Assembly (NCBI RefSeq): GCF_013213835.1
Contig: NZ_JABSSU010000005.1
Span: 205,294-269,293 of the forward strand
Direction of reading: 5' to 3'
Source: Winogradskyella sp.
GTDB lineage: Bacteria > Bacteroidota > Bacteroidia > Flavobacteriales > Flavobacteriaceae
DNA: 64,000 bases
The translations under genes and the position numbers were made by a program. Below the pieces are notes generated by a model. It was given only the letters and a program-made list of their open reading frames with translations, was not told where the DNA came from and ran no database searches. Of the stretch, positions 7,920-50,300 are shown in pieces; position 1 is the first letter of the stretch, and each line of letters starts with the position of its first letter.

Positions 7920-9113
7920 TTAAATAGCTTCACTTAAAATATCTAAAGGATTTTCTTCTTCTGATTCTTCTTTACTTTTTATCTCTTGGCGCTTAACACT
8001 TACACTTAATATGATTCCGATTGCCAAACAAGTCATCCATATGGATGTTCCACCACTACTTATTAAAGGCAAGGTTTGTCCTGTAACTGGAAACAATTCT
8101 ACCGCCACTGCCATATTTATCAATGCTTGAAAAACGATTGGCAAACCAACGGCTAAGACTAATAATTTCCCAAAAATGGTGTCTGACTTTTGAGAGACAA
8201 TAACAATCCTAAACAACAACCAAGAATACATTACCAACAGAAAAACACCACCAAATAAACCATACTCTTCAATAATGATAGCAAAAATGAAATCAGAAGA
8301 TGATTGTGGCAAAAAGTTCTTCTGAACACTTTTACCTGGCCCAAGCGGTTTTAATCCTGTTGCAATAGCAATTTTTGCTTTTTCAATTTGATAATCTGCC
8401 TCAGTATCTTCACCATTTGAGAAATTTTCTATTCTGCTCATCCAAGTATCCACACGGTTTGGCATTTGCTCTGGGAACGCTTTTGCTACCAAAATGAACA
8501 TAGCTAAAGCCGCAACTCCAGCACCGATAACCAGTAATAAATACTTCACCGGATAACCACCAATAAACGTGATCATCACAACCATAGAAAAAATAATTGC
8601 TGTTGTAGAAAAGTTAGCAGGTAGAATTAATATCAGAATAAAAAACACTGGCATCCATAACGGTATAATAGTCTCCTTAAAACTGACATTTTTATCTCTA
8701 ATTTTAGACAAGTACCTTGCTACATATACCATGAGTACAACAGCCGCTAAAGTGGATGTTTGAAATGACATATTAACCACCGGAATTTTAATCCAGCGAC
8801 TAGCATTGGCTCCTTCAATCGTGGTTCCTTGTAACATTGTAACCAACAACAATACAATAACAATAGGAACCATTATCATCGATAGACCTCTGAAATATTT
8901 GTAAGGTATTTTATGTATACCAAACATAATCCCAAACCCCAACGCCAAATGCATAAAATGCTTTAAAAAGAATGAAAACGTATTACTTGTTCCGCTAATA
9001 TTGGCCAAATTACTAGCAGCACTATACACAGGTAAAAAGGAAAAAATAGCCAACAATGTTGCTATAGCCCAAATGGCTCTATCACCTTTTATTTGCGAAA
9101 ACATGTTATTCAT
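7920..9113 (-). CDS. ftsW: SEDS-family peptidoglycan polymerase FtsW
   Basis: 397 aa polytopic membrane protein of the FtsW/RodA/SpoVE type, located between murD and murG. Confidence 0.9.
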   Translation of the reverse strand: MNNMFSQIKGDRAIWAIATLLAIFSFLPVYSAASNLANISGTSNTFSFFLKHFMHLALGFGIMFGIHKIPYKYFRGLSMIMVPIVIVLLLVTMLQGTTIEGANASRWIKIPVVNMSFQTSTLAAVVLMVYVARYLSKIRDKNVSFKETIIPLWMPVFFILILILPANFSTTAIIFSMVVMITFIGGYPVKYLLLVIGAGVAALAMFILVAKAFPEQMPNRVDTWMSRIENFSNGEDTEADYQIEKAKIAIATGLKPLGPGKSVQKNFLPQSSSDFIFAIIIEEYGLFGGVFLLVMYSWLLFRIVIVSQKSDTIFGKLLVLAVGLPIVFQALINMAVAVELFPVTGQTLPLISSGGTSIWMTCLAIGIILSVSVKRQEIKSKEESEEENPLDILSEAI

Positions 9114-9127
9114 TTCTTTATTTATTT

Positions 9128-9152
9128 GATGACTGAGTTACTCAAAGTCATC
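9128..9152 (-). other. Imperfect hairpin in the 81-nt murD-ftsW spacer
   Basis: gatgact-gag-tta-ctc-aa-agtcatc: a 7-bp outer stem plus a 3-bp inner stem with a 2-nt bulge. There is no flanking U-run. Confidence 0.4.
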
Positions 9153-9194
9153 CTTTTCCAATGAAGCTTCAAGAACCTCAGCCTCCATATTTAA

Positions 9195-10526
9195 TTACAG
9201 ATTTCGAACAGCATTTTTAAATTGACGACCTCTATCTTCATAGTTTTCAAACAAGTCGCAACTTGCACATGCCGGAGACAATAACACGTTATCACCTGCT
9301 TCGGCCACCTTATATGCAATCTTTACAGCTTCCTCTATATATTGCGTTTCTACGATTATATCAACCATATTTCCGAAGGCATCGAGCAACTTGGCATTAT
9401 CAACACCAAGGCATATAATGGCTTTAACCTTTTCATTAATAAAAGGATATAGCTCAGTATAGTCATTACCTTTATCTACTCCTCCAACAATCCAAACTGT
9501 TGGCGCATCCATGCTTTCTAATGCAAAATAAGTTGCATTAACATTGGTTGCTTTAGAGTCATTAATGTATTGCACTTTATTAATTTTCAATACATGTTCT
9601 AAGCGGTGCTCTACGCCTTGAAAATTTTCTAAACTCTCTCTAATCGTCTGCTTTCTTATTTTAAGCAAATGTGCCACTGTAGAGGCAGCCATGGCATTTT
9701 TCACGTTATGTTTGCCTTGTAATCTTAAGTTTGCTGTTGGCATAATTATTTTATTATTATCTATCGTTATTATTATGTTATTGTTATCTAAATAAGCGCC
9801 TTCTTCCACAACTTGAGTTATTGAAAAAGGTAATTTTTTGGATTGAATTGAATTGTTTTGAAGCCAGTTTGAAATCACTTCATCATCTGCATCATATATG
9901 AAATAATCCTCGTTAGATTGATTCTCAACAATCCTAAATTTTGAAATGATGTAATTCTCAAACTTATAATCATATCGATCTAAATGATCTGGTGTAATAT
10001 TGGTTAGTACTGCAATTTTCGGCTGAAAGCTACTGATGTCATCCAATTGAAAACTACTTACCTCAAGCACATAATTTTCATGGTTTTCTTCTAGAATTTG
10101 TTTTGCAAAACTGTCACCAATATTACCAGCTAAACCCACATTTAATTCTTGCTTTAACAAGTGATGCGTTAACGTTGCTGTTGTGGTTTTACCATTACTA
10201 CCAGTTATAGCCACCAAAGTGGCATCTGTATAATTTGAAGCAAACTCAATTTCAGAAACTATTGTAATTCCCGCAGTTCTTATTTTTTGGATCAAAGCCA
10301 CTTTATCTGGAATCCCAGGACTTTTCATGATGAGATCTGCATTCAGAATGTTTAATTCTGTATGCTGCTCATCTTCAAATTCAATCTCATTATTTAAAAG
10401 AACGTCTCTATAATTTTCTTTAATTTTTCCCTTATCGGAGACAAACACATCATATCCTTTTTCCTTTGCTAAAAGTGCGGTACCAACTCCACTTACTCCT
10501 CCTCCCAATATGACTAATCTTTTCAT
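9195..10526 (-). CDS. murD: UDP-N-acetylmuramoylalanine--D-glutamate ligase
   Basis: 443 aa. GGGVSG dinucleotide-like N-terminus and GSNGKTTT P-loop. Confidence 0.95.
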   Translation of the reverse strand: MKRLVILGGGVSGVGTALLAKEKGYDVFVSDKGKIKENYRDVLLNNEIEFEDEQHTELNILNADLIMKSPGIPDKVALIQKIRTAGITIVSEIEFASNYTDATLVAITGSNGKTTTATLTHHLLKQELNVGLAGNIGDSFAKQILEENHENYVLEVSSFQLDDISSFQPKIAVLTNITPDHLDRYDYKFENYIISKFRIVENQSNEDYFIYDADDEVISNWLQNNSIQSKKLPFSITQVVEEGAYLDNNNIIITIDNNKIIMPTANLRLQGKHNVKNAMAASTVAHLLKIRKQTIRESLENFQGVEHRLEHVLKINKVQYINDSKATNVNATYFALESMDAPTVWIVGGVDKGNDYTELYPFINEKVKAIICLGVDNAKLLDAFGNMVDIIVETQYIEEAVKIAYKVAEAGDNVLLSPACASCDLFENYEDRGRQFKNAVRNL

Positions 10527-41386: not shown

Positions 41387-42121
41387 TTATTTATTGCTAG
41401 AATTAAATTCAAGAATAAAATTTAAACCCTCTAAAAGAAAATTTGCGTTGGCAAATATGCTATTTTTTAATTGGTTTCCCAAAAATTCAGTGTCACCTCC
41501 AGTTAAAATAATCTTTAAATCTGGGTATTTTAACAAATAATTATCTATTACGCCATCTAATTCTTTGGTTACTCCCATAACAACACCTGAGTGAATCGAT
41601 GATTCCGTTGAATTACCTGTAATATTTTCTGGTATTGACTTTTCTAATAAAGGAAGATTTGCAGTGAAATCATTTAGTGATTTGTAACGTAATCGAATTC
41701 CAGGTGAAATTGCACCACCTAAATATTCATTTTTGTTGGTTATAAAATCATATGTTATACACGTCCCTGCGTCTATGATCAATACATCATGATTAGGAAA
41801 TTGATTTACTGAAGCGCTAACCAAAGCTATTCTATCTACCCCAAGTGTTTTAGGTGTACTATAAGAGTTAATAAAAGGTAATTCTATTTGATGATTTAGT
41901 AATAAAACATCAATATCTTTTTGAAGTAATCTGAGATGATCATCAGGCAATTTACCTACAGAAGAAACGATTGCTGATTTTAATTTTGGAAATCTTTTTT
42001 TTAAGTGTTGGTATTGTTCTTTAAAGTGAGAAAGCTCAAAACTTTGTTTAAAATTCAATCTATTTTGACTAAAAACGGCAAATTTCACAAAAGTATTTCC
42101 AACATCAACTATAAGATTCAT
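41387..42121 (-). CDS. coaX: Type III pantothenate kinase
   Basis: 244 aa. N-terminus MNLIVDVGNT and an ASKHA fold pattern. Confidence 0.88.
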   Translation of the reverse strand: MNLIVDVGNTFVKFAVFSQNRLNFKQSFELSHFKEQYQHLKKRFPKLKSAIVSSVGKLPDDHLRLLQKDIDVLLLNHQIELPFINSYSTPKTLGVDRIALVSASVNQFPNHDVLIIDAGTCITYDFITNKNEYLGGAISPGIRLRYKSLNDFTANLPLLEKSIPENITGNSTESSIHSGVVMGVTKELDGVIDNYLLKYPDLKIILTGGDTEFLGNQLKNSIFANANFLLEGLNFILEFNSSNK

Positions 42122-42171
42122 AAGGAATTAATGAATTGCAAATTTATAAAATCAAATTTTACAATTTTATT

Positions 42172-42202
42172 TTTGCGAATAATAAAAATGAATATATATT
42201 TG
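42172..42202 (+). promoter_or_regulatory. Bacteroidetes-type sigma-A promoter for tRNA-Phe
   Basis: TTTG (42172-42175), a 19-nt spacer, then TAtaTTTG (42195-42202). This matches the -33 TTTG / -7 TAnnTTTG consensus. The box ends 21 nt before the tRNA 5' end. Confidence 0.5.
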
Positions 42203-42223
42203 CATCCGCTTATTTAAGCAACT

Positions 42224-42299
42224 GGTGCCTTAGCTCAGTTGGTAGAGCAAAGGACTGAAAATCCTTGTGTCCCTGGTTCGATTCCTGGAGGCACCACCA
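42224..42299 (+). tRNA. tRNA-Phe (anticodon GAA), CCA encoded
   Basis: GGTGCCT-TA-GCTC-AGTTGGTA-GAGC-A-AAGGA-CTGAAAA-TCCTT-GTGTC-CCTGG-TTCGATT-CCTGG-AGGCACC-A-CCA. There is one U-U mismatch in the T-stem. Confidence 0.9.
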
Positions 42300-42300
42300 T

Positions 42301-42332
42301 AAAAAATCCGGTTCAATTGAATCGGATTTTTT
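42301..42332 (+). terminator. Strong rho-independent terminator after tRNA-Phe
   Basis: aaaaaatccggttcaa-ttgaatcggatttttt: a near-perfect long palindrome followed by T6. Confidence 0.85.
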
Positions 42333-42523
42333 GGTTTTAGACATTTATACTCCATATAAAGTTTTAGTCTATACAGAAAACACACTACCTTGGTCATCAT
42401 GCAAAAAACCTCAACAGGACTAGGAAATTAACCTATGATAAATTCTAACTCGACAGCGACTAATTATCAATTTTTTTAACAATTTTTCGTAATTTTAGTT
42501 TTAAATAACTAAATCAATTAACT

Positions 42524-42883
42524 ATGACGTTCTCTAGTAAAGAAGCTTTTAGCACTCGTGAATCAATGAATCAAGACGCAATGGATGACTTAAATTTTGG
42601 TGTTATTAGAATGGATCGTAACGCTAACATTAAAGCCTATAACAAATACGAATTAAATCTCTCGGGAAATCAGCGTGAGGAAGTTTTGGGAAAAGATTTT
42701 TTTAAACAGATTGCACCATGCACAAACAACTTTATGGTTGCAGAAAAATACCTGTTAGATGATATTATTGATGAAGAAATAGATTATATTTTCACCTATC
42801 GTATGGCACCAACCAAAGTGAAATTGCGATTGCTTTCTAACCCTAATGAGAACCATCAATATCTCCTCGTTCAAAAGTCTTGA
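42524..42883 (+). CDS. pyp: Photoactive yellow protein (PYP), p-coumaric-acid-binding PAS photoreceptor
   Basis: 119 aa, colinear with remembered Halorhodospira halophila PYP. Matches include LNFGVIRMD..N.NI.AYN.YE (Tyr42/Glu46 equivalents Tyr39/Glu43), GKDFFKQIAPCT (chromophore Cys66, TGC at 42719-42721) and YRMAPTKVKL. Confidence 0.9.
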   Translation: MTFSSKEAFSTRESMNQDAMDDLNFGVIRMDRNANIKAYNKYELNLSGNQREEVLGKDFFKQIAPCTNNFMVAEKYLLDDIIDEEIDYIFTYRMAPTKVKLRLLSNPNENHQYLLVQKS

Positions 42884-42893
42884 TTTGTAGCCC

Positions 42894-44132
42894 ATGCGTA
42901 GTGAAGCAGAAAAAGAAATTCATTCTTTAATCGGGTTTTTAAACCAATGTCCATTTGCAATTATTAAAGCAGATAGTGATGGGCAAATTGTTATGCAAAA
43001 CGCCGCCGCCAGTCAGATCCTTATACCGTTTTGTCTTAGTAAGGGTTGTTCAACCTCTGATATTTATGCTATTATAAACGAAATGCATCCAGATTGGTTA
43101 GACCGTATTAAATCTTTTGATGCAGATTTTGGGAATATCATCGAAAATGAAAGAGTAGGTATTGCTTTTTCTAATCGGGAGGCAGATTTACATCTCGCTT
43201 TTTCGGTAATTAAAATTGATGAAAATACGTTTCAATACGCATTCAACGACATAAGCGCACGAGTTAAAATTGAAGAAGAACTAAACGCTCTTGCAGAATC
43301 TAAAGCGCTTGAAGCAGGTAAGCTTGAGATGGCAACGGGTGTTTTACACGATATCGGAAACGCAGTAACATCTTTTGGAACAGATGTAGCGCGACTACAA
43401 AATAAAGTTGAAGGCAAAGAAAAAGACGAACTCAAAAAACTTGAAACGTTATTTAGCAAGCAAGAAGCTGCATTTGACAAGGCCTTAGGGACTGGCAAAG
43501 GTACTGCATTAAAAAAATTCATTAATGTACTTCAGCAGAGTCTTGCACATCGTGAGACTGATGTAGCAACAATAATAAAGAAACTATATCAAACAACTAG
43601 CCATATTCAAGACATCCTTAATATTCAACGCAACTACGTAAAGGGCAAAGTTAAAGGCGAAAGAGCAAAGTTTAAGCTAAGTTCTATTATTGATGACGCA
43701 TTAGCCATACAGGAAAGAGGACTTCTAAAAAGAGATGTCTTAATAACAAAGGATATTCCTTTAAACAACCCATTAATTAGCGGTGATAAAACAAAGCTTA
43801 TTCAAGTTCTTATCAATGCTTTTAAAAATAGTGCAGAAGCTTTTGATGAAGTTAAAGAAACAAGAGAGAAAACTTTACATATAGATTTAAGCATAGATAA
43901 AGCCTCTAATATGGTCATACTTAGTATTGAAGACAACGCTATAGGTTTTGAACCCAGCTTATCTGACAAATTATTAGAAAAAGGAAATACTTTTAAAAAG
44001 ACTGGAACTGGATTTGGACTTTACAATTGCAAACAAATTATAGAAACCCATCAAGGTGAAATTAGTATTACTAGCAATGGCCCTAATCAAGGCGCAAAAT
44101 TTACAATTAAAATACCTTACACAAACCAATGA
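42894..44132 (+). CDS. Soluble PAS-domain sensor histidine kinase
   Basis: 412 aa with no TM helix. N-terminal PAS-like fold (about aa 10-125, ending FNDISARVKIEEEL). H-box GVLHDIGNAV, N-box INAFKNSAEA, G-boxes EDNAIGF and GTGFGLYNCKQI. It starts 10 nt after the pyp stop, and its stop overlaps the next ATG (ATGA). Confidence 0.9.
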   Translation: MRSEAEKEIHSLIGFLNQCPFAIIKADSDGQIVMQNAAASQILIPFCLSKGCSTSDIYAIINEMHPDWLDRIKSFDADFGNIIENERVGIAFSNREADLHLAFSVIKIDENTFQYAFNDISARVKIEEELNALAESKALEAGKLEMATGVLHDIGNAVTSFGTDVARLQNKVEGKEKDELKKLETLFSKQEAAFDKALGTGKGTALKKFINVLQQSLAHRETDVATIIKKLYQTTSHIQDILNIQRNYVKGKVKGERAKFKLSSIIDDALAIQERGLLKRDVLITKDIPLNNPLISGDKTKLIQVLINAFKNSAEAFDEVKETREKTLHIDLSIDKASNMVILSIEDNAIGFEPSLSDKLLEKGNTFKKTGTGFGLYNCKQIIETHQGEISITSNGPNQGAKFTIKIPYTNQ

Positions 44133-45703
44133 CAATGAAGATAAAAAGTAGATTATTAATAATTGACGACGAAGAAATTGTAAGAGATAGTATAAGAGAA
44201 ATCTTAACCCCTGAAGAAGAAGACAATTTTTCCTTAGATCTTGGCGAAGCTTCAGCTGATCTTTTTGGCGACACACAAGAGGTTATCGAAAGAAATCCTA
44301 GAAGTTTACACCCACATTTTGACATTGTCGAAGCTAAAAATGGTGAGGAAGGTTTGCAACGCGTTAAAGAAAGTCTTGAGGCTAACGAACCGTTTAATGT
44401 TATTTTTATTGATATGCGAATGCCCGGCTGGGATGGCTTAACTACTTGTGTAGAAATACGTAAAATTGACCCGAAAGCACAAATTTCTTTTATCACTGCA
44501 TTTACTGACCGTAGTATTGATGAAATCATAAAATTAGCTGGTGGAGATGTGGGTTACTTAAGCAAACCCTTTATTCCAGAAGAAATATTACAATTAGCAA
44601 CAAAAAGTCTTTACGATTGGGCGAGATTAACCAATTTAGAAAAATTGCTAGAAATTATTGGTGAAATTGGTCTTGGTACAACACAACTAAAAACGCTTCT
44701 AACTAATATTTTACATCAAATTGCAGATTATATAGGTTCTGACTATGCTGTTTTAGGTAAATTAGAAGCAGATGGTTTCGAAGAGATTTCTGTTATGGGC
44801 ATTGGCAAAGAACGTATTAAGATAGACGTTCTTTCAGAAAAAATAGATTTAAAGGCAATACACGATATTCAATATACTGAAGGTCTATTAGTTTGCCCTC
44901 TCGAGCAATACTATATTCTGGCCGTACCTTCTAAGCCCGAACTATTCAACCAAGAAAAAATCTATTTATTACGACTATTTGTTGAAAATGCAGTGAGAGC
45001 TATCCACAATTCTGAATTAAACGAAGAACTATTAAAACGAGAGAAGCTTTCTGCAGTTGGACAAGCGATAAGTATGGTAATGCATGATATTAGAAACCCC
45101 ATAGCTCACCTCACTAACATAGGGCAGTTAATTCAAATGAACCCTGGCGATAGTAGTCAAAATGAGACAATGGCTCAATTGATCCTAAAATCTACCGACA
45201 ATGCACTAAATATAATTACAGATGTCTTAGATTTTACTAAGAATGCATCAATCCATAAAAAGGAAATAACCCTTAAAAATTGGTTAGATGAAATTATAAG
45301 TCGTCTTAAAGGACGTGACGGTTTTGAAACTGTAGATATCAATATCACAGGCATGCAAGATGCTACAATAGAATTAGATCCTAAGAAAATGGATCGGGTT
45401 ATTATTAACCTGGTTAATAATTCTGTTGAGGCATTAGTAGATAACAAAACAGAAGCGCCAAGAGTTGAGATAAATATTTCTGAAGATGATGCCAACCTTA
45501 TTCTTAAAATCCGAGACAATGGCCCAGGTATTCCTGAAGAAATAAAAGCTAAATTATTTGAAGCATTCGTAACTAAAAACAAAGTTGATGGCACTGGCTT
45601 AGGCTTAGCTATTGTAAAACAGATCATAGACGCCCATAAAGGCTTTATTAAATTAAATGATCCTGAATTGGGAGCTGAGTTTGAAATTGGTTTACCAAAA
45701 TAA
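44129..45703 (+). CDS. Hybrid REC-GAF-histidine kinase
   Basis: 524 aa. The receiver (LLIIDDEE, FIDMRMPGWDG, LSKPF) carries an acidic insertion of about 35 aa. GAF-like middle domain. HisKA H-box MHDIRNPIAHL. HATPase_c motifs (NLVNNSVEA, RDNGPGI, GTGLGLAIVK). Confidence 0.9.
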   Translation: MTMKIKSRLLIIDDEEIVRDSIREILTPEEEDNFSLDLGEASADLFGDTQEVIERNPRSLHPHFDIVEAKNGEEGLQRVKESLEANEPFNVIFIDMRMPGWDGLTTCVEIRKIDPKAQISFITAFTDRSIDEIIKLAGGDVGYLSKPFIPEEILQLATKSLYDWARLTNLEKLLEIIGEIGLGTTQLKTLLTNILHQIADYIGSDYAVLGKLEADGFEEISVMGIGKERIKIDVLSEKIDLKAIHDIQYTEGLLVCPLEQYYILAVPSKPELFNQEKIYLLRLFVENAVRAIHNSELNEELLKREKLSAVGQAISMVMHDIRNPIAHLTNIGQLIQMNPGDSSQNETMAQLILKSTDNALNIITDVLDFTKNASIHKKEITLKNWLDEIISRLKGRDGFETVDINITGMQDATIELDPKKMDRVIINLVNNSVEALVDNKTEAPRVEINISEDDANLILKIRDNGPGIPEEIKAKLFEAFVTKNKVDGTGLGLAIVKQIIDAHKGFIKLNDPELGAEFEIGLPK

Positions 45704-46804
45704 ATGAATGAAATTCTAGATTTAGAAAGATTAAAAGTACTCATTAACGAAATTTTCTGGGAAACCGTTCCAAGTTGCAGAAACATTCCTTTTGAAGGAG
45801 ATTTAAGAAAGCACTTAAATATAGACTCTTTAGACGCTCTAGATTTAGCCTCAGAATTTCATTTTAGGTTCGATATGCTCTCTGAATCTAAAGAACAGTA
45901 TTTACTACAGTATGATACTGCCGAAGATTGGTTAAATCAAATTTATATTTCTGCCAATAACCCCGAAAAAAGATTTGGTTTCTTTTCTTCCGGCTCAACA
46001 GGACAACCAACACAGGTTTGGCACGATAAGCAGCAACTCATTGAAGAGCGTGACTTTTGGCTTCAAATTACCAAAGCAAAAGGCGTTATCTGTTTAGTGC
46101 CTGTGAGACATATCTACGGTTTTATTTGGGGATTAATGTTAGGTACTAAATTAGAACGGTCCAAATTTTTAAATATGAAGGACTGGCACAAAACGTCTGA
46201 ATACTCAAATGATGATGATCTTATTATTGGTCATCCTACCGCTTGGAAACATATCAATTTAACATTTTCACATAAATACGCGGTGAGCTCAACCGCACCA
46301 ATTGGTAAATCATTAATTGAAGAACTCAAGCTCGACAATATTAAGGGTTTAAATATTTATGGTAGTACGGAAACTGGAGCTATCGGCTATCAATACTGGG
46401 ATAATGATTATTTTAAATTATTACCATATTGGCAAACAGAAAGTGACAAACTAACTAGAGATAACTTTACCTTTGAAATTCCTGACCACATAGAATGGCT
46501 CAGCTCAAGTACATTCCAATTAAATGGAAGAAAAGACAAGCTTATTCAAATAGGAGGTGAAAATGTTTCTCTTATTGAAGTCGAAGCAAATCTCAAAAAA
46601 ATCTCTGGAGTTAAAAATGTTTGGGTGAAACCGTATCATAGTCATTGGGGAATTAGATTATTTAGCTATTTTCAATTACAACCAGAACAAAAAATAAATA
46701 CCTTTGAAGACAAGCTTATTGAACATTTAAAGAGCTTACCATCAAAACTTAAACCACGTAAATGGGAATTTAGCTACGACCCATTTGATAAATTGAATAT
46801 ATAA
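45704..46804 (+). CDS. pcl: Minimal adenylate-forming ligase, PYP-activation 4-coumarate ligase type, with ACP-like N-terminus
   Basis: 366 aa. ANL motifs SSGSTGQPT (aa 95-103), YGSTETG and GRKDKLIQIGGENVSLIEVE. The N-terminal 80 aa carry a carrier-protein-like LNIDSLDALDL motif. The ATG immediately follows the upstream stop, and the gene's own stop overlaps the tal ATG. Confidence 0.75.
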   Translation: MNEILDLERLKVLINEIFWETVPSCRNIPFEGDLRKHLNIDSLDALDLASEFHFRFDMLSESKEQYLLQYDTAEDWLNQIYISANNPEKRFGFFSSGSTGQPTQVWHDKQQLIEERDFWLQITKAKGVICLVPVRHIYGFIWGLMLGTKLERSKFLNMKDWHKTSEYSNDDDLIIGHPTAWKHINLTFSHKYAVSSTAPIGKSLIEELKLDNIKGLNIYGSTETGAIGYQYWDNDYFKLLPYWQTESDKLTRDNFTFEIPDHIEWLSSSTFQLNGRKDKLIQIGGENVSLIEVEANLKKISGVKNVWVKPYHSHWGIRLFSYFQLQPEQKINTFEDKLIEHLKSLPSKLKPRKWEFSYDPFDKLNI

Positions 46805-48366
46805 TGTCACAAAAAGCATCTGACATTCCGTTTTCTAAATCTTGGTCTATCGAAAATTTTATTGCTATTGGTCGTAAGCAAATTATGCCTTCAATCTCAA
46901 ACTCAGATTTTGAAAAGATTAACCAATCTCACCACACCTTAAAGAACCTCATAAAACAAGACAAATGGATTTATGGTGTAAGTAGCGGTTTTGGACCGTT
47001 AGCTTCAGAAGACGCTTCCAAGAACTCAGAAAGACAACAACGCTTAATTTATCATCTTGCAACTGGTGTAGGACCAAAACTAGATTTAGAAATTGTACGC
47101 ATGATATTCGCCTTGCGCCTTAAACAACTTGCCCAAGGTTATTCGGGAATAAACCCTGAAAGTTTCAAAATTCTTTTTAATTCCTTTAATGCAGACTTAT
47201 TACCTAAAATTCCTTCATTAGGTTCTGTTGGGGCAAGTGGTGATCTTACACCATTAGCACATTTAGCTTTAGGATTAGCAGGAGAAAGTGATTTCTACCT
47301 TAACGGTAAAAAACACTCAGCATCAGATTTTAAAAAAATAAACACTGTACAAAAAATTAAATGGTCAGATAAAGATGCTTTAGCCTTTGTAAACGGTACA
47401 GCCGCCATGACATCTATTGCGACCAAAAACTTTTACGAAACAGTCACTCTATTTCGATTAAGCACGCAACTTGCCTTTAGCTATGGTGAATGTCTAGGTG
47501 CTTACACTGAAGCTTGGCATCCAAAACTAGCAGAGTTACATCCACAAAAAGGGCATTTAGAACTTTCAGAATGGTTGTATAATAAAAGTGAAAAAGGTTG
47601 GTTTCAGAATAATCAATCTCTACAATCTGCATTCAAAACCAAATGGCCACAAGACCAATATTCTATCCGTTGTATTCCTCAACTTTTAGAAGCAGTTAGG
47701 GATCAATTAAAGCAGATTGAAGATTGCCTTACAATTGAAATTAATAGTATAAGCGACAATCCAAATTTCTATTCAGAAAATCAAGAAGTACTTCATGGTG
47801 GTAATTTTAACGGACAGCATTTATCATTTACTTCAGACCAATTAAATCTTCAAATCACCTATCTAGGCATTTATGCCGAAAAACGCATCAGCACCTTGTG
47901 CGATCCTAAATTAAATATAGGCTTACCACCATTTTTAAAATCTGGTACTACTGGTGAAAACAGTGGATTCATGGGCGCTCAAGTTACGGCTACAGCACTC
48001 TGCGCAGAATTAAAGAGTTTATATCGACCATTAAGCCTAGAGACACAGAGCACCAATGGACAAAACCAAGACATGGTGAGCATGGGAACTTCATCAACCA
48101 ATAGAGGCCAAAAATTGCTCTCTATCCTTAAATCTTTAATCAGTATTGAATGCATGGTAAATATTGAAGCCTTAAGACTTCGTAAAGAGCAACTACAACG
48201 AAATGCTTCAAATCAAAATGAAGCCTGGCTAGAATATTTCAGCCCTTATTTTCCACAATTAACTGAAGATCGTCCACTAAGTAAAGAGATAGAATACCTT
48301 TCAAACAATATCATCACTATTTGCGAAACGTTCAAAGAATTGCCATTAAAGCAGAAAAGTCATTAA
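46804..48366 (+). CDS. tal: Tyrosine ammonia-lyase (MIO-dependent aromatic ammonia-lyase)
   Basis: 520 aa. MIO triad in GSVGASGDL (Ala144-Ser145-Gly146, 47233-47241). The selectivity switch His84-Leu85 in IYHLATGVG matches TALs (HALs have Ser-His, PALs have Phe-Leu). No hutU/hutI genes are nearby. Confidence 0.8.
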   Translation: MSQKASDIPFSKSWSIENFIAIGRKQIMPSISNSDFEKINQSHHTLKNLIKQDKWIYGVSSGFGPLASEDASKNSERQQRLIYHLATGVGPKLDLEIVRMIFALRLKQLAQGYSGINPESFKILFNSFNADLLPKIPSLGSVGASGDLTPLAHLALGLAGESDFYLNGKKHSASDFKKINTVQKIKWSDKDALAFVNGTAAMTSIATKNFYETVTLFRLSTQLAFSYGECLGAYTEAWHPKLAELHPQKGHLELSEWLYNKSEKGWFQNNQSLQSAFKTKWPQDQYSIRCIPQLLEAVRDQLKQIEDCLTIEINSISDNPNFYSENQEVLHGGNFNGQHLSFTSDQLNLQITYLGIYAEKRISTLCDPKLNIGLPPFLKSGTTGENSGFMGAQVTATALCAELKSLYRPLSLETQSTNGQNQDMVSMGTSSTNRGQKLLSILKSLISIECMVNIEALRLRKEQLQRNASNQNEAWLEYFSPYFPQLTEDRPLSKEIEYLSNNIITICETFKELPLKQKSH

Positions 48367-48620
48367 ATCACATTTCTTTAACAAAGACCTTTCATTTAAA
48401 AGCTATATGACTGCAATTTTTCAATAAAAAAAATCTGCTTGAACATCATACAGAAAATAGTCTTAAGTATTGTTTTTTAGATATTTAAGTCAGATTTAAA
48501 TTCAATGACTTTAAGCTGTAATCTACACAACAATTACCAATAGAAAACTAATCGTCTAACTTAGATTTTTAATCATTATCACATTTTTAAGAAAAAGATT
48601 GAATAGTTGACTAGAAAATA

Positions 48621-50300
48621 ATGAAAAACCTAAATAAATATAGCAAAACTGTCACACAAGACCCAACACAACCTGCAGCACAAGCAATGCTTCACGGTAT
48701 TGGATTAACACGTGAAGATTTTGAAAAACCCATTGTAGGAATCGCAAGTACCGGATACGAAGGGAACCCTTGTAACATGCACCTCAACGATTTAGCTAAA
48801 CTTGTAAAAGACGGCACAAAAAATGAAGATGTAATAGGCTTAATTTTCAACACTATTGGTGTTAGTGACGGAATTTCAATGGGAACACCTGGAATGCGGT
48901 ACTCACTACCATCTAGAGATGTTATTGCCGACTCAATGGAAACTGTTGTGCAAGCTATGAGTTATGATGGTCTAGTTACTGTTGTAGGTTGCGACAAAAA
49001 TATGCCTGGTGCCTTAATGGCTATGATTCGTTTGAATCGTCCATCCATTTTAGTATACGGCGGCACAATAGATTCTGGTTGCCATAATGGTAAAAAACTA
49101 GATGTTGTTTCTGCTTTTGAAGCTTGGGGAAGCAAAGTTGCCGGAACCATGGAACAAGAAGAGTTTGAATGCATCGTTAAAAAAGCAATTCCTGGTGCAG
49201 GCGCTTGTGGTGGTATGTACACTGCAAACACTATGGCATCATCAATAGAAGCTTTAGGTATGGCACTACCTTTTAACTCATCAAATCCTGCGATGAGTCA
49301 AGCAAAGCAAGACGAAGCTGTAAAAGCGGGTGAAGCCATGCGTGTTTTGCTAGAAAAAGACATTAAACCTTCAGATATCATAACAAGGAAGTCTTTAGAA
49401 AACGCCATACGTCTAATTACAATTTTAGGTGGCTCAACCAATGCTGTTCTTCACTTTTTAGCTATTGCGAGAGCAGCAAATATCGATTTCACTTTAGAAG
49501 ATTTTCAAAAAGTAAGTGATGACACACCATTTTTAGCAGACTTAAAACCTAGCGGTAAGTATCTAATGGAAGACGTACACAAAGTTGGTGGAATTCCGGC
49601 GGTGCTTAAATACCTTTTAAACAAAGGACTATTGTATGGTGATTGTTTAACCGTAACTGGTAAAACACTTGCAGAAAACCTTGCTGATGTAAAAGACCTA
49701 ACTGAAGGGCAAGACGTTATTAAACCACTAGAACAACCTATAAAAACCACAGGACACCTTAGAATGCTTTACGGCAACCTTGCTACTGAAGGTAGTGTAG
49801 CAAAAATTACTGGTAAAGAAGGGTTAAAGTTTACAGGAAAAGCAAAAGTATTTGAAGGCGAATACGATGCTAATGACGGCATTAGAGAAGGTAAAGTAAA
49901 GAAAGGTGACGTTGTAGTTATTAGATACGAAGGCCCAAAAGGTGGCCCAGGAATGCCAGAAATGTTAAAACCAACAGCTGCAATAATGGGTGCTGGCTTA
50001 GGAAAAGATGTAGCGCTAATTACAGATGGACGTTTCTCTGGCGGAACACACGGTTTTGTTGTAGGACACATTACACCAGAAGCACAAGAAGGCGGAACAA
50101 TAGCATTAGTTAAAGATGGCGATACAATCACTATTGATGCTGAAACCAACACAATTTCTCTAGAAGTGTCTGATGAAGAACTAAAAGAAAGAAAAGCAGA
50201 ATGGCAAGCGCCAGATTTAAAAGTAAAACGTGGTGTACTTTACAAATACGCAAGATCTGTATCATCAGCATCTAAAGGCTGTGTAACGGACGAATTCTAA
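48621..50300 (+). CDS. ilvD: Dihydroxy-acid dehydratase
   Basis: 559 aa. IlvD/Edd family with the GCDKNMPG motif. Confidence 0.95.

Follow-up and report, generated by a model that had tools for sequence, protein, structure and literature searches.

The window analysed in this work is a stretch of 64,000 nucleotides (nt; 64 kb) from the genome of a Winogradskyella sp. (contig NZ_JABSSU010000005.1, positions 205,294 to 269,293). The subject of the present study is a group of five co-directional open reading frames (ORFs) on its + strand, located at positions 42524-48366 of the window and separated by gaps of no more than 10 nt. Two histidine kinase genes, here called HK1 and HK2, lie between the gene of a stand-alone photoactive yellow protein (PYP) and the two genes predicted to supply its chromophore, pCL and TAL. 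The five genes are as follows:

42524..42883, + strand: pyp, stand-alone PYP of 119 aa, identical to NRB60168.1
42894..44132, + strand: HK1, soluble histidine kinase of 412 aa, identical to NRB60169.1, with an N-terminal domain (N-domain), DHp and CA domains
44129..45703 (or from 44135), + strand: HK2, 524 aa (522 aa with the second start), identical to NRB60170.1, with REC, GAF-like, HisKA and HATPase domains
45704..46804, + strand: pCL, 4-coumarate-CoA ligase-like protein of 366 aa
46804..48366, + strand: TAL, aromatic amino-acid ammonia-lyase of 520 aa

The three NCBI entries, which match the PYP, HK1 and HK2 of the window exactly, derive from a Winogradskyella sp. metagenome-assembled genome (MAG). 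A preliminary description of the same stretch had given these positions for all five ORFs and a distance of 10 nt between pyp and HK1, and both the ORF list and a reading of the junctions from the sequence agree with it. The same description had considered HK1 and HK2 to be translationally coupled by an ATGA overlap. The junction reads CAATGACAATG, and the overlap exists only if HK2 starts at 44129; the start chosen by NCBI is the second ATG, at 44135, which gives a protein of 522 aa beginning 2 nt past the HK1 stop, and the fact that close HK2 homologues open with MKIK favours this second ATG. The overlap is thus uncertain, and what stands is a tight junction, with a gap of no more than 2 nt with either start. 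HK2 and pCL abut (TAAATG), while pCL and TAL overlap by 1 nt (TAATG), and this packing indicates that the five genes form one operon, whichever HK2 start is used.

The PYP of the window scored 86.9 bits (E 1e-24) against the NCBIfam model TIGR02373, which is under the curated equivalog cut-off of 143.05, and is named PYP by NCBI despite this. In an alignment of 25 sequences (24 relatives plus the PYP of H. halophila), the chromophore-binding cysteine is invariant; in the window it is Cys66 (codon 42719-42721, in the motif APCT), corresponding to Cys69 of H. halophila PYP. The chromophore hydrogen-bonding residues are also kept, Tyr39 and Glu43 being equivalent to Tyr42 and Glu46 of H. halophila PYP, while Thr50 and Arg52 of the latter are replaced by Ser and Asn. 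Its sequence places the protein in a divergent PYP subfamily, which is marked by the motif APCTNNF. The pCL protein matched TIGR02372 with 156 bits (E 1e-45), again under the cut-off, as well as the Pfam AMP-binding family, and is predicted to activate the chromophore. TAL matched PF00221 with E 2e-124, and has the MIO motif ASG at residue 144 and the sequence YHLATG at residue 83, whose His-Leu pair marks tyrosine specificity in the Rhodobacter TAL literature; TAL probably makes p-coumarate from tyrosine. Considering that the Cys, Tyr and Glu residues of the pocket are conserved and that pCL and TAL are in the same operon, the PYP of the window is probably functional. The same three holo-PYP genes occur in the same relative order in the pyp-pcl-tal locus of H. 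halophila, the difference being that in the window two kinase genes are present between pyp and pCL.

Two observations on related PYPs may be reported here. In five of them (from loci L030 and L017, and the proteins P0148, P0146 and P0143), mostly from Chitinophagales and Sphingobacteriales, the residue equivalent to Glu46 is replaced by Gln, Leu, Ile or Asn with Cys69 kept, which may represent spectral or kinetic tuning. In addition, one Bacteroidota MAG (L006) has two tandem PYP genes before HK1, at 8968-9324 and 9502-9858.

The product of the first kinase gene, HK1, could be divided into three parts, all encoded on the + strand:

42894..43259, + strand: N-terminal PAS-like domain, residues 1-122, defined by the AlphaFold2 (AF2) fold; the proposed PYP-receiving module
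43260..43658, + strand: DHp-like helical region with His152 and an extra helical insert between the two long helices, defined by AF2 and the invariant LHDIGN
43659..44129, + strand: CA (ATP-binding) domain, PF02518 HATPase_c

No transmembrane segment is present in HK1 (the maximum Kyte-Doolittle score for a 19-residue window is 1.13), and the only Pfam match is HATPase_c (PF02518, residues 297-410, E 1.6e-18); no PAS domain and no domain of the HisKA families was matched by Pfam, even at E<=10. The H-box GVLHDIGNAV noted in the preliminary description is present, with the phospho-acceptor His152 encoded at 43347-43349. In an alignment of 36 sequences of the HK1 family, H152 in the LHDIGN H-box is invariant together with N308, N312, D347, G351, G371, G373 and G375, and the N, G1 and G2 boxes are intact. 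The AF2 model (overall predicted local distance difference test, pLDDT, 81.9) shows an N-cap helix and a five-stranded PAS fold for residues 4-119 (pLDDT about 90), followed by helices at 121-172, containing H152, at 176-198, which is the extra insert, and at 202-251, and then by the CA domain. The top Foldseek match was YF1, a chimera of a LOV domain and a histidine kinase (4gcz, E 2e-21), and VicK is among the full-length PAS-DHp-CA matches. The earlier term "TM-less PAS kinase" can therefore be retained for HK1, provided that its PAS part is understood as a prediction from AF2 and Foldseek which Pfam does not reproduce.

The second kinase, HK2, has a different architecture, with a receiver domain at its N-terminus:

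44129..44623, + strand: REC domain, with Asp95, the acidic pair D13/D14, T123 and K146
44207..44305, + strand: acidic insert of 33 aa, residues 27-59, between alpha1 and beta2 of REC
44675..44938, + strand: middle alpha/beta domain, residues ~183-270, putatively GAF-like, from the AF2 secondary structure
44951..45700, + strand: kinase core, a DHp domain with His319 (codon 45083-45085) followed by CA; HisKA and HATPase_c

Pfam recognized Response_reg (split by the insert), HisKA (311-372) and HATPase_c (417-523) in HK2. The phospho-acceptor of the receiver is Asp95, in the motif FIDMRMP pointed out previously (codon 44411-44413), and the residue set of the receiver is intact: D13, D14, D95, T123 and K146 are all invariant in an alignment of 36 HK2 homologues, as are H319, N427, N431, D463-G467, G488, G490 and G492 in the kinase core. 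The preliminary description had regarded an acidic insertion of about 35 aa in the receiver as unusual. The insert is there, at 33 aa, but it is a family trait rather than a peculiarity of this protein, being similar in length in all 36 homologues, with L45, F46 and F64 invariant; AF2 models it as a low-confidence helix (34-46) followed by a disordered loop. The domain string REC-GAF-HisKA-HATPase proposed earlier was found by Pfam in three of its four elements, the GAF domain being unconfirmed. The region at ~183-270, between REC and DHp, is alpha/beta in the AF2 model with pLDDT 65-80 (73.9 for the whole of HK2), and its only GAF match in Pfam is a partial, sub-threshold one to GAF_2 (E=0.01, 33 residues); some HK2 homologues carry precomputed PF11849.

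The top Foldseek match of HK2 was LvrB (8vc9, E 6e-18), and the NCBIfam LvrB model also matches the HK2 core. LvrB, from the LvrA/LvrB system of pathogenic Leptospira, is the prototype of Rec-controlled kinases, and is activated via phosphorylation of its receiver by LvrA (Agustoni et al., 2026, PMC13269768). Like LvrB, HK2 has an N-terminal receiver on a DHp-CA kinase, which in the chain proposed below would be phosphorylated by an upstream kinase and signal onward, and on sequence and model it is a predicted Rec-controlled histidine kinase of the LvrB type. There are, however, several differences. The connection between Rec and DHp in LvrB is one alphaS helix, while in HK2 a GAF-like domain of ~100 residues lies between them and the receiver contains a conserved insert of ~33 residues; LvrA is a hybrid kinase without PYP input, unlike the role proposed below for HK1; and no counterpart of the LvrB partner LvrC (Rec-anti-sigma) was identified at the operon of the window.

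The distribution of this gene arrangement was studied in about 170 related loci overall. When the HK1 alignment was compared with one genome per GTDB species, 230 relatives were found, the best 80 loci were kept, and these were examined by tblastn with the five proteins of the window. An HK2 homologue was present directly after HK1 in 66 of the 67 loci with room for it, and, starting from the HK2 side, an HK1-type gene was present upstream in all three pairs sampled (Mucilaginibacter defluvii, Arcticibacter and Pontibacter sp. G13). HK1 and HK2 are therefore a fixed pair, as the earlier reading of the two proteins as partners implied. Of the 75 loci with room upstream of HK1, 48 have a PYP homologue as the gene immediately preceding it. 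The trio pyp-HK1-HK2 was found in Flavobacteriales, Chitinophagales, Sphingobacteriales and Cytophagales, and also in Spirochaetaceae MAGs, in Chthoniobacterales, in one Acidobacteriota MAG and in one "delta proteobacterium" MAG. A pCL homologue follows HK2 in many Bacteroidota loci, and TAL is confined to the clade of the window and one neighbouring clade. Considering that the arrangement recurs in more than 80 independent loci of several phyla, it cannot be a product of chance.

The pair is not exclusive to PYP. On the HK1 neighbour-joining tree the presence of PYP is clade-structured, with three clades having PYP and two lacking it, namely a Pedobacter/Dyadobacter/Chitinophagaceae clade and a Schleiferiaceae/Croceimicrobium clade, the latter nested among PYP-containing lineages. 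The pair HK1-HK2 appears to be an older and more general module, into which PYP has been plugged upstream in about two-thirds of the closest relatives, and the word "dedicated", which had been used for the two kinases as PYP partners, is too strong in view of the 27 of 75 HK1-HK2 loci and the three pairs sampled from the HK2 side that have no adjacent pyp. An explanation of the locus in these terms is that HK1-HK2 is an autonomous relay in which the PAS-like domain of HK1 senses a signal of its own, for instance the redox state or a small ligand, and that PYP is merely co-transcribed or co-regulated; the kinases might, for example, control the expression of pyp and the chromophore genes, or PYP and the kinases might answer the same condition without any physical signalling from PYP to HK1. 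The many pairs that keep the N-domain without an adjacent pyp are in favour of this explanation, as is the presence of thioredoxin as the upstream co-directional gene in one of the PYP-less clades. No alternative small sensor is shared upstream of HK1 among the PYP-less loci.

The genes around the PYP-less pairs deserve a short description. In seven loci from Schleiferiaceae, Croceimicrobium and UBA7878 (L029, L037, L038, L063, L076, L077 and L079), the nearest gene upstream of HK1, co-directional with it and about 470-510 nt away, encodes a thioredoxin of 120 aa with the motif WCGPC and holds the usual slot of pyp; this could be plain synteny or could represent a different input. In another PYP-less clade, a divergent 185-aa membrane protein and a hybrid kinase are encoded upstream of HK1. 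In Pontibacter sp. G13 (L172, 2592-7786), HK1-HK2 is followed by an overlapping gene for a 399-aa ligase resembling pCL and preceded by a gene whose 334-aa product may have a helix-turn-helix at its N-terminus, with no PYP within 5 kb; the PYP of this organism may be encoded elsewhere. Pedobacter africanus and Puia sp. P3 are also among the organisms with PYP-less pairs. Finally, seven PYP-less Chitinophagaceae loci (L034, L036, L053, L072, L073, L075 and L080) encode, at 2-5 kb downstream of HK2, further large sensor kinases of 750-1400 aa with a kinase core resembling that of HK1 and the H-box MHDIGNAV; several HK1-type kinases may feed one HK2.

A different picture was obtained from the PYP side. 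A metagenome scan seeded with the PYP alignment and using the pattern [QE][VI]APCTNN gave 80 PYP loci, about half of which have an HK1 homologue downstream. A hidden Markov model (HMM) was built from residues 1-128 of HK1, that is, from its N-domain, and in every locus without an HK1 homologue this HMM matched the protein adjacent to pyp over its full length. In 74 of the 80 loci, pyp is followed on its own strand by an ORF with the N-domain, the start of which lies 3-90 nt past pyp; of the remaining six, four have no room for it, and two (L157 and L160) have a protein with two N-domains immediately upstream. An N-domain protein therefore adjoins pyp in 76 of 76 loci with room, whatever its output domain. 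The partners of PYP in these loci were:

HK1-type kinase: about 35 loci
Ndom-PAS-GGDEF: about 17 loci
Ndom-PAS-GGDEF-EAL: 4 loci
Ndom-SpoIIE/PP2C: 4 loci
Ndom-HisKA-HATPase-REC: 1 locus
remaining loci: ended by contig ends

It should be noted that several genes which tblastn had called HK1 at 25-30% identity turned out, on recounting with the HMM, to encode GGDEF proteins matched via the N-domain alone.

The N-domain, of ~125 residues, has no Pfam match at E<=10. Generic PAS domains in the same loci reach only E about 0.005 with its HMM, and the PDB gave only weak partial matches, to the PAS domains of VicK, WalK and CitA. The possibility that the N-domain is a PYP paralogue was also considered and discarded, as hhalign aligned only 28 columns (beta1-beta2) with 78% probability. 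Because generic PAS domains score so weakly and the agreement with PDB and PYP profiles is limited to the beta1-beta2 motif, the N-domain is, by profile comparison, a distinct family. A search of 1.84 billion representative proteins with the N-domain profile returned 1746 clusters at E<=1e-3 and 346 at E<=1e-10, with the domain almost always at residues 1-130; among the top 71 full-length representatives, 31 contain GGDEF and 30 contain HATPase_c. The genomic context was looked up for seven N-domain proteins of varied architecture, and DNA was available for five: all five have a PYP gene directly upstream (E 1e-35 to 1e-43), while in the other two contexts the upstream place is taken by a small ORF (130 or 115 aa) that has no annotation.

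Two natural variants bear on the relation between PYP and the N-domain. The protein P0365 (L168, 296-1972) is an in-frame PYP-Ndomain-PAS-GGDEF fusion of 558 aa in which the chromophore Cys is intact. The locus L163 (384-2262) encodes a PYP of 122 aa, with FALCLNN in place of APCTNN, followed by an Ndom-HisKA-HATPase protein of 370 aa and a CheY-like receiver of 126 aa, and would represent the canonical two-component version of the system, with the CheY-like receiver in the slot of the receiver of HK2. In addition, five residues of the N-domain (L13, Y17, P20, Q41 and R87, in window numbering) are conserved among partners of PYP, whether of the HK1 type or not, and relaxed in PYP-less HK1s; P20, for example, is found in 100% of PYP-linked HK1s, 100% of the other PYP partners and 54% of PYP-less HK1s. 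Since the PYP-less set in this comparison comprises two clades only, the conservation of these residues only where PYP is adjacent is suggestive. An autonomous relay to which PYP is incidental would leave these observations without an explanation, as it accounts neither for an N-domain protein beside every PYP of the clade, be it a histidine kinase, a GGDEF, a GGDEF-EAL or a PP2C protein, nor for the in-frame fusion, nor for the residues conserved only beside PYP. On balance, we regard it as improbable, although it is the most serious competitor of a link from PYP to HK1.

Evidence from co-evolution was less discriminating. All pairs of proteins correlate at 0.62-0.91 through shared ancestry, and the mirror-tree partial correlation between PYP and the N-domain of HK1 was 0.33-0.44, a weak signal which counts in favour of an autonomous relay. 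The distances of PYP fit those of the HK2 REC domain at least as well (r 0.75, partial 0.38-0.49). This is compatible with a signal passing from PYP to HK2 itself, via the GAF-like domain or the acidic insert of REC, with HK1 as a second, independent input by phosphorylation, and these two regions, one of them the conserved REC insert, have no other assigned role. Yet the GGDEF and PP2C partners of PYP have no HK2-like protein beside them and all have the HK1 N-domain, and pairs without PYP conserve the insert and the GAF-like domain to the same degree; a direct PYP-HK2 link is accordingly very unlikely in our opinion.

When all this is considered, the functional link between pyp and the first kinase put forward in the preliminary description gains support from the N-domain neighbour in all PYP loci with room and from the fusion protein, and we consider it likely that PYP signals through HK1. 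The sequence shows a complete set of genes for holo-PYP synthesis, two catalytically intact soluble kinases, a competent HK2 receiver and a tight operon, from which the following chain can be proposed. As the known H. halophila pathway and the conserved residues suggest, TAL and pCL would make and activate p-coumarate, and the stand-alone PYP would carry it on Cys66. Blue-light-activated PYP would then act in trans on the N-domain of HK1, the two working as a tandem-PAS sensor divided between separate proteins, and would change the autophosphorylation of HK1 at His152, as the gene context, the exchange of output domains behind a constant N-domain and the natural fusion suggest. HK1 would pass the phosphate to Asp95 of the HK2 receiver, a step to which the near-universal adjacency of HK1 and HK2 and the sister architecture with a single-domain receiver in the same slot both point. 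By analogy with LvrB, phosphorylation of the receiver would switch the kinase core of HK2, and the interposed GAF-like domain could add a second input. HK2 would finally signal to a response regulator encoded elsewhere. From the gene context, we assign to this whole chain, from PYP through the HK1 N-domain and the HK2 receiver to a regulator elsewhere, a probability of roughly 60%.

The last step depends on what is encoded near the operon. The preliminary description had stated that the operon contains no output regulator, and this holds for a wider region, since no REC domain other than that of HK2 was found anywhere in the 64-kb window. In addition, no response-regulator gene is conserved beside the cassette in the 80 genome loci, the sole receiver seen being the CheY-like gene of the variant locus L163. 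As no regulator is present to fix the direction of signalling, and as the kinase genes are inside the chromophore operon, one might also think of the kinases as acting upstream of PYP, phosphorylating a regulator of pyp-pCL-TAL transcription, with the output of PYP going to an unrelated partner elsewhere. Such feedback is difficult to reconcile with the sister loci, which pair PYP with effector enzymes (diguanylate cyclases and PP2C phosphatases) and not with transcriptional feedback devices, or with the loci of Spirochaetota, Verrucomicrobiota and the "delta" MAG, where the trio pyp-HK1-HK2 is present without pCL or TAL. We give this explanation the least credit of all, marginally below that given to a direct link between PYP and HK2.

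Several points weigh against the proposed chain from PYP through HK1 to HK2. The support for the binding of PYP to HK1 and for the phosphotransfer from HK1 to HK2 is gene context, and because adjacent genes are co-inherited the adjacency counts are not independent events. The 27 loci without an adjacent pyp, and likewise the pairs of Mucilaginibacter defluvii, Arcticibacter and Pontibacter sp. G13, have no PYP within 5-10 kb (5 kb for these three pairs) but keep an intact N-domain, which can therefore work without a PYP encoded in cis. Only one metagenome contig, of 2.1 kb, has yielded the fusion protein, and the mirror-tree analysis, in which PYP correlates as highly with REC as with the N-domain, cannot separate the two. 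The PYP of the window falls under the NCBIfam cut-off and carries the replacements R52N and T50S, and its photochemistry is a predicted one. Finally, no response regulator or other output was identified for HK2, either in the window or beside the cassette. In summary, the gene arrangement noted in the preliminary description is confirmed, and its interpretation is supported in part.

The same arrangement is already represented in the literature. Dohmen and co-workers (Dohmen et al., 2025, J Bacteriol, PMC12826048) listed 113 predicted pyp operons, found HisKA/HATPase genes in 17 of them, and proposed the kinases as partners of PYP; their taxonomy table includes the PYP of the window (NRB60168.1), and their Data Set S2 includes the operon of Polaribacter litorisediminis (K8354_02615) and a trio of genes from Haliangium ochraceum (Hoch_5523). 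The Polaribacter operon matches that of the window gene for gene, encoding in this order a PYP of 119 aa, a histidine kinase of 411 aa, a hybrid histidine kinase/response regulator of 522 aa, an AMP-binding protein of 366 aa and an ammonia-lyase of 522 aa, the first three being 67%, 71% and 75% identical, respectively, to PYP, HK1 and HK2 of the window. The Haliangium proteins are a PYP of 129 aa, a histidine kinase of 423 aa and a Rec-histidine kinase of 524 aa. According to the main text of the same paper, kinases tend to be upstream of pyp (PMC12826048); from the coordinates in Data Set S2, unlike what is stated in that text, the kinases of Polaribacter and those of Haliangium, on the complement strand, are downstream of pyp in transcription order. 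In an earlier survey, clade A PYPs were reported to be often beside histidine kinases, which were likewise proposed as partners, and clade C PYPs beside GGDEF proteins (Xing et al., 2022, PMC9664959). The locus type to which the operon of the window belongs has therefore been published before, and the idea of the kinases as partners is already in print. The preliminary description, which had held that kinase links of PYP are known only as covalent fusions, was out of date in view of these two papers (PMC9664959, PMC12826048), and it overstated the novelty of the kinase-partner idea, given the orthologous Polaribacter operon in Data Set S2. On the other hand, neither the two surveys (PMC9664959, PMC12826048) nor the literature searched mention an N-terminal domain shared by PYP partners, including the GGDEF and PP2C ones, the breadth and fixity of the pyp-HK1-HK2 cassette, or the nature of HK2 as a Rec-controlled kinase.

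Among better-known systems is Ppr of Rhodospirillum centenum, a PYP-bacteriophytochrome-histidine kinase fusion (PMC12826048, PMC9664959), in which, as proposed here, PYP gives a blue-light input to a histidine kinase. Ppr, however, is one polypeptide with a phytochrome and a HisKA or HWE kinase, while in the window pyp and HK1 are distinct genes with their own stop codons, 10 nt apart; Pfam detected neither a PHY nor a GAF-bilin module in the proteins of the operon, and HK1, which has a DHp domain with an LHDIGN H-box not recognized by Pfam, is followed by a second, Rec-controlled kinase. An experimental precedent for a neighbouring gene product as a partner of PYP is provided by Rhodobacter capsulatus, whose Rc-PYP binds in a light-dependent way to PBP, the 142-aa dimeric alpha+beta protein of the adjacent gene (bioRxiv 10.1101/2021.06.01.446672), the one case in which such binding of a stand-alone PYP has been demonstrated, although PBP has no output domain and Rc-PYP is activated by UV-A and reversed by blue light. 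In the PYP-diguanylate cyclase pairs of Idiomarina loihiensis and of the Burkholderiales "clade C" (PMC9664959), a stand-alone PYP is again followed by a signalling enzyme, but the output is the synthesis or degradation of cyclic di-GMP and not a phosphorelay. The GGDEF partners of the PYP subfamily studied here, as seen in the metagenome loci, start with the HK1-type N-domain.

As for the DNA flanking the operon, two features are located upstream of pyp:

42224-42299, + strand: tRNA-Phe (GAA), between a divergent pantothenate-kinase-like gene and pyp
about 42303-42335: terminator-like hairpin, directly after tRNA-Phe

The operon is accordingly expected to start after these two features, with its promoter within about 42340-42520. 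A scan of 42050-48700 for sigma-70 promoters and terminators gave counts equal to those expected from shuffled sequences, Bacteroidota promoters being different from the sigma-70 model. On the 3' side, the operon is followed by ilvD- and ilvB-like genes.

PYP has been intensively studied, yet the two family surveys still count its signalling target among the unsolved questions (PMC12826048, PMC9664959). From what was a list of gene neighbours, the comparison presented here derives a specific and testable claim, namely that one N-domain, found beside every PYP of the clade and once fused to it, is the receiver of the PYP signal; in the kinase version, the signal would then go through a Rec-controlled second kinase. 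We see the balance as even on whether the HK1 N-domain is a dedicated PYP-receiver module that marks out the protein with which stand-alone PYPs of the APC[TM]NN clade interact directly, irrespective of its output, and the domain belongs to a family which has no Pfam model or close solved structure. The system is tractable, with three soluble proteins, the chromophore enzymes in the same operon, and a cultured relative, Polaribacter litorisediminis, with an identical operon, and for these reasons the chain could be reconstituted in vitro. If the claim is true, PYP and the N-domain would together form a split tandem-PAS photosensor and a soluble, reconstitutable light-to-phosphorelay system, and the downstream partner that has long been sought would be identified for much of the PYP family.

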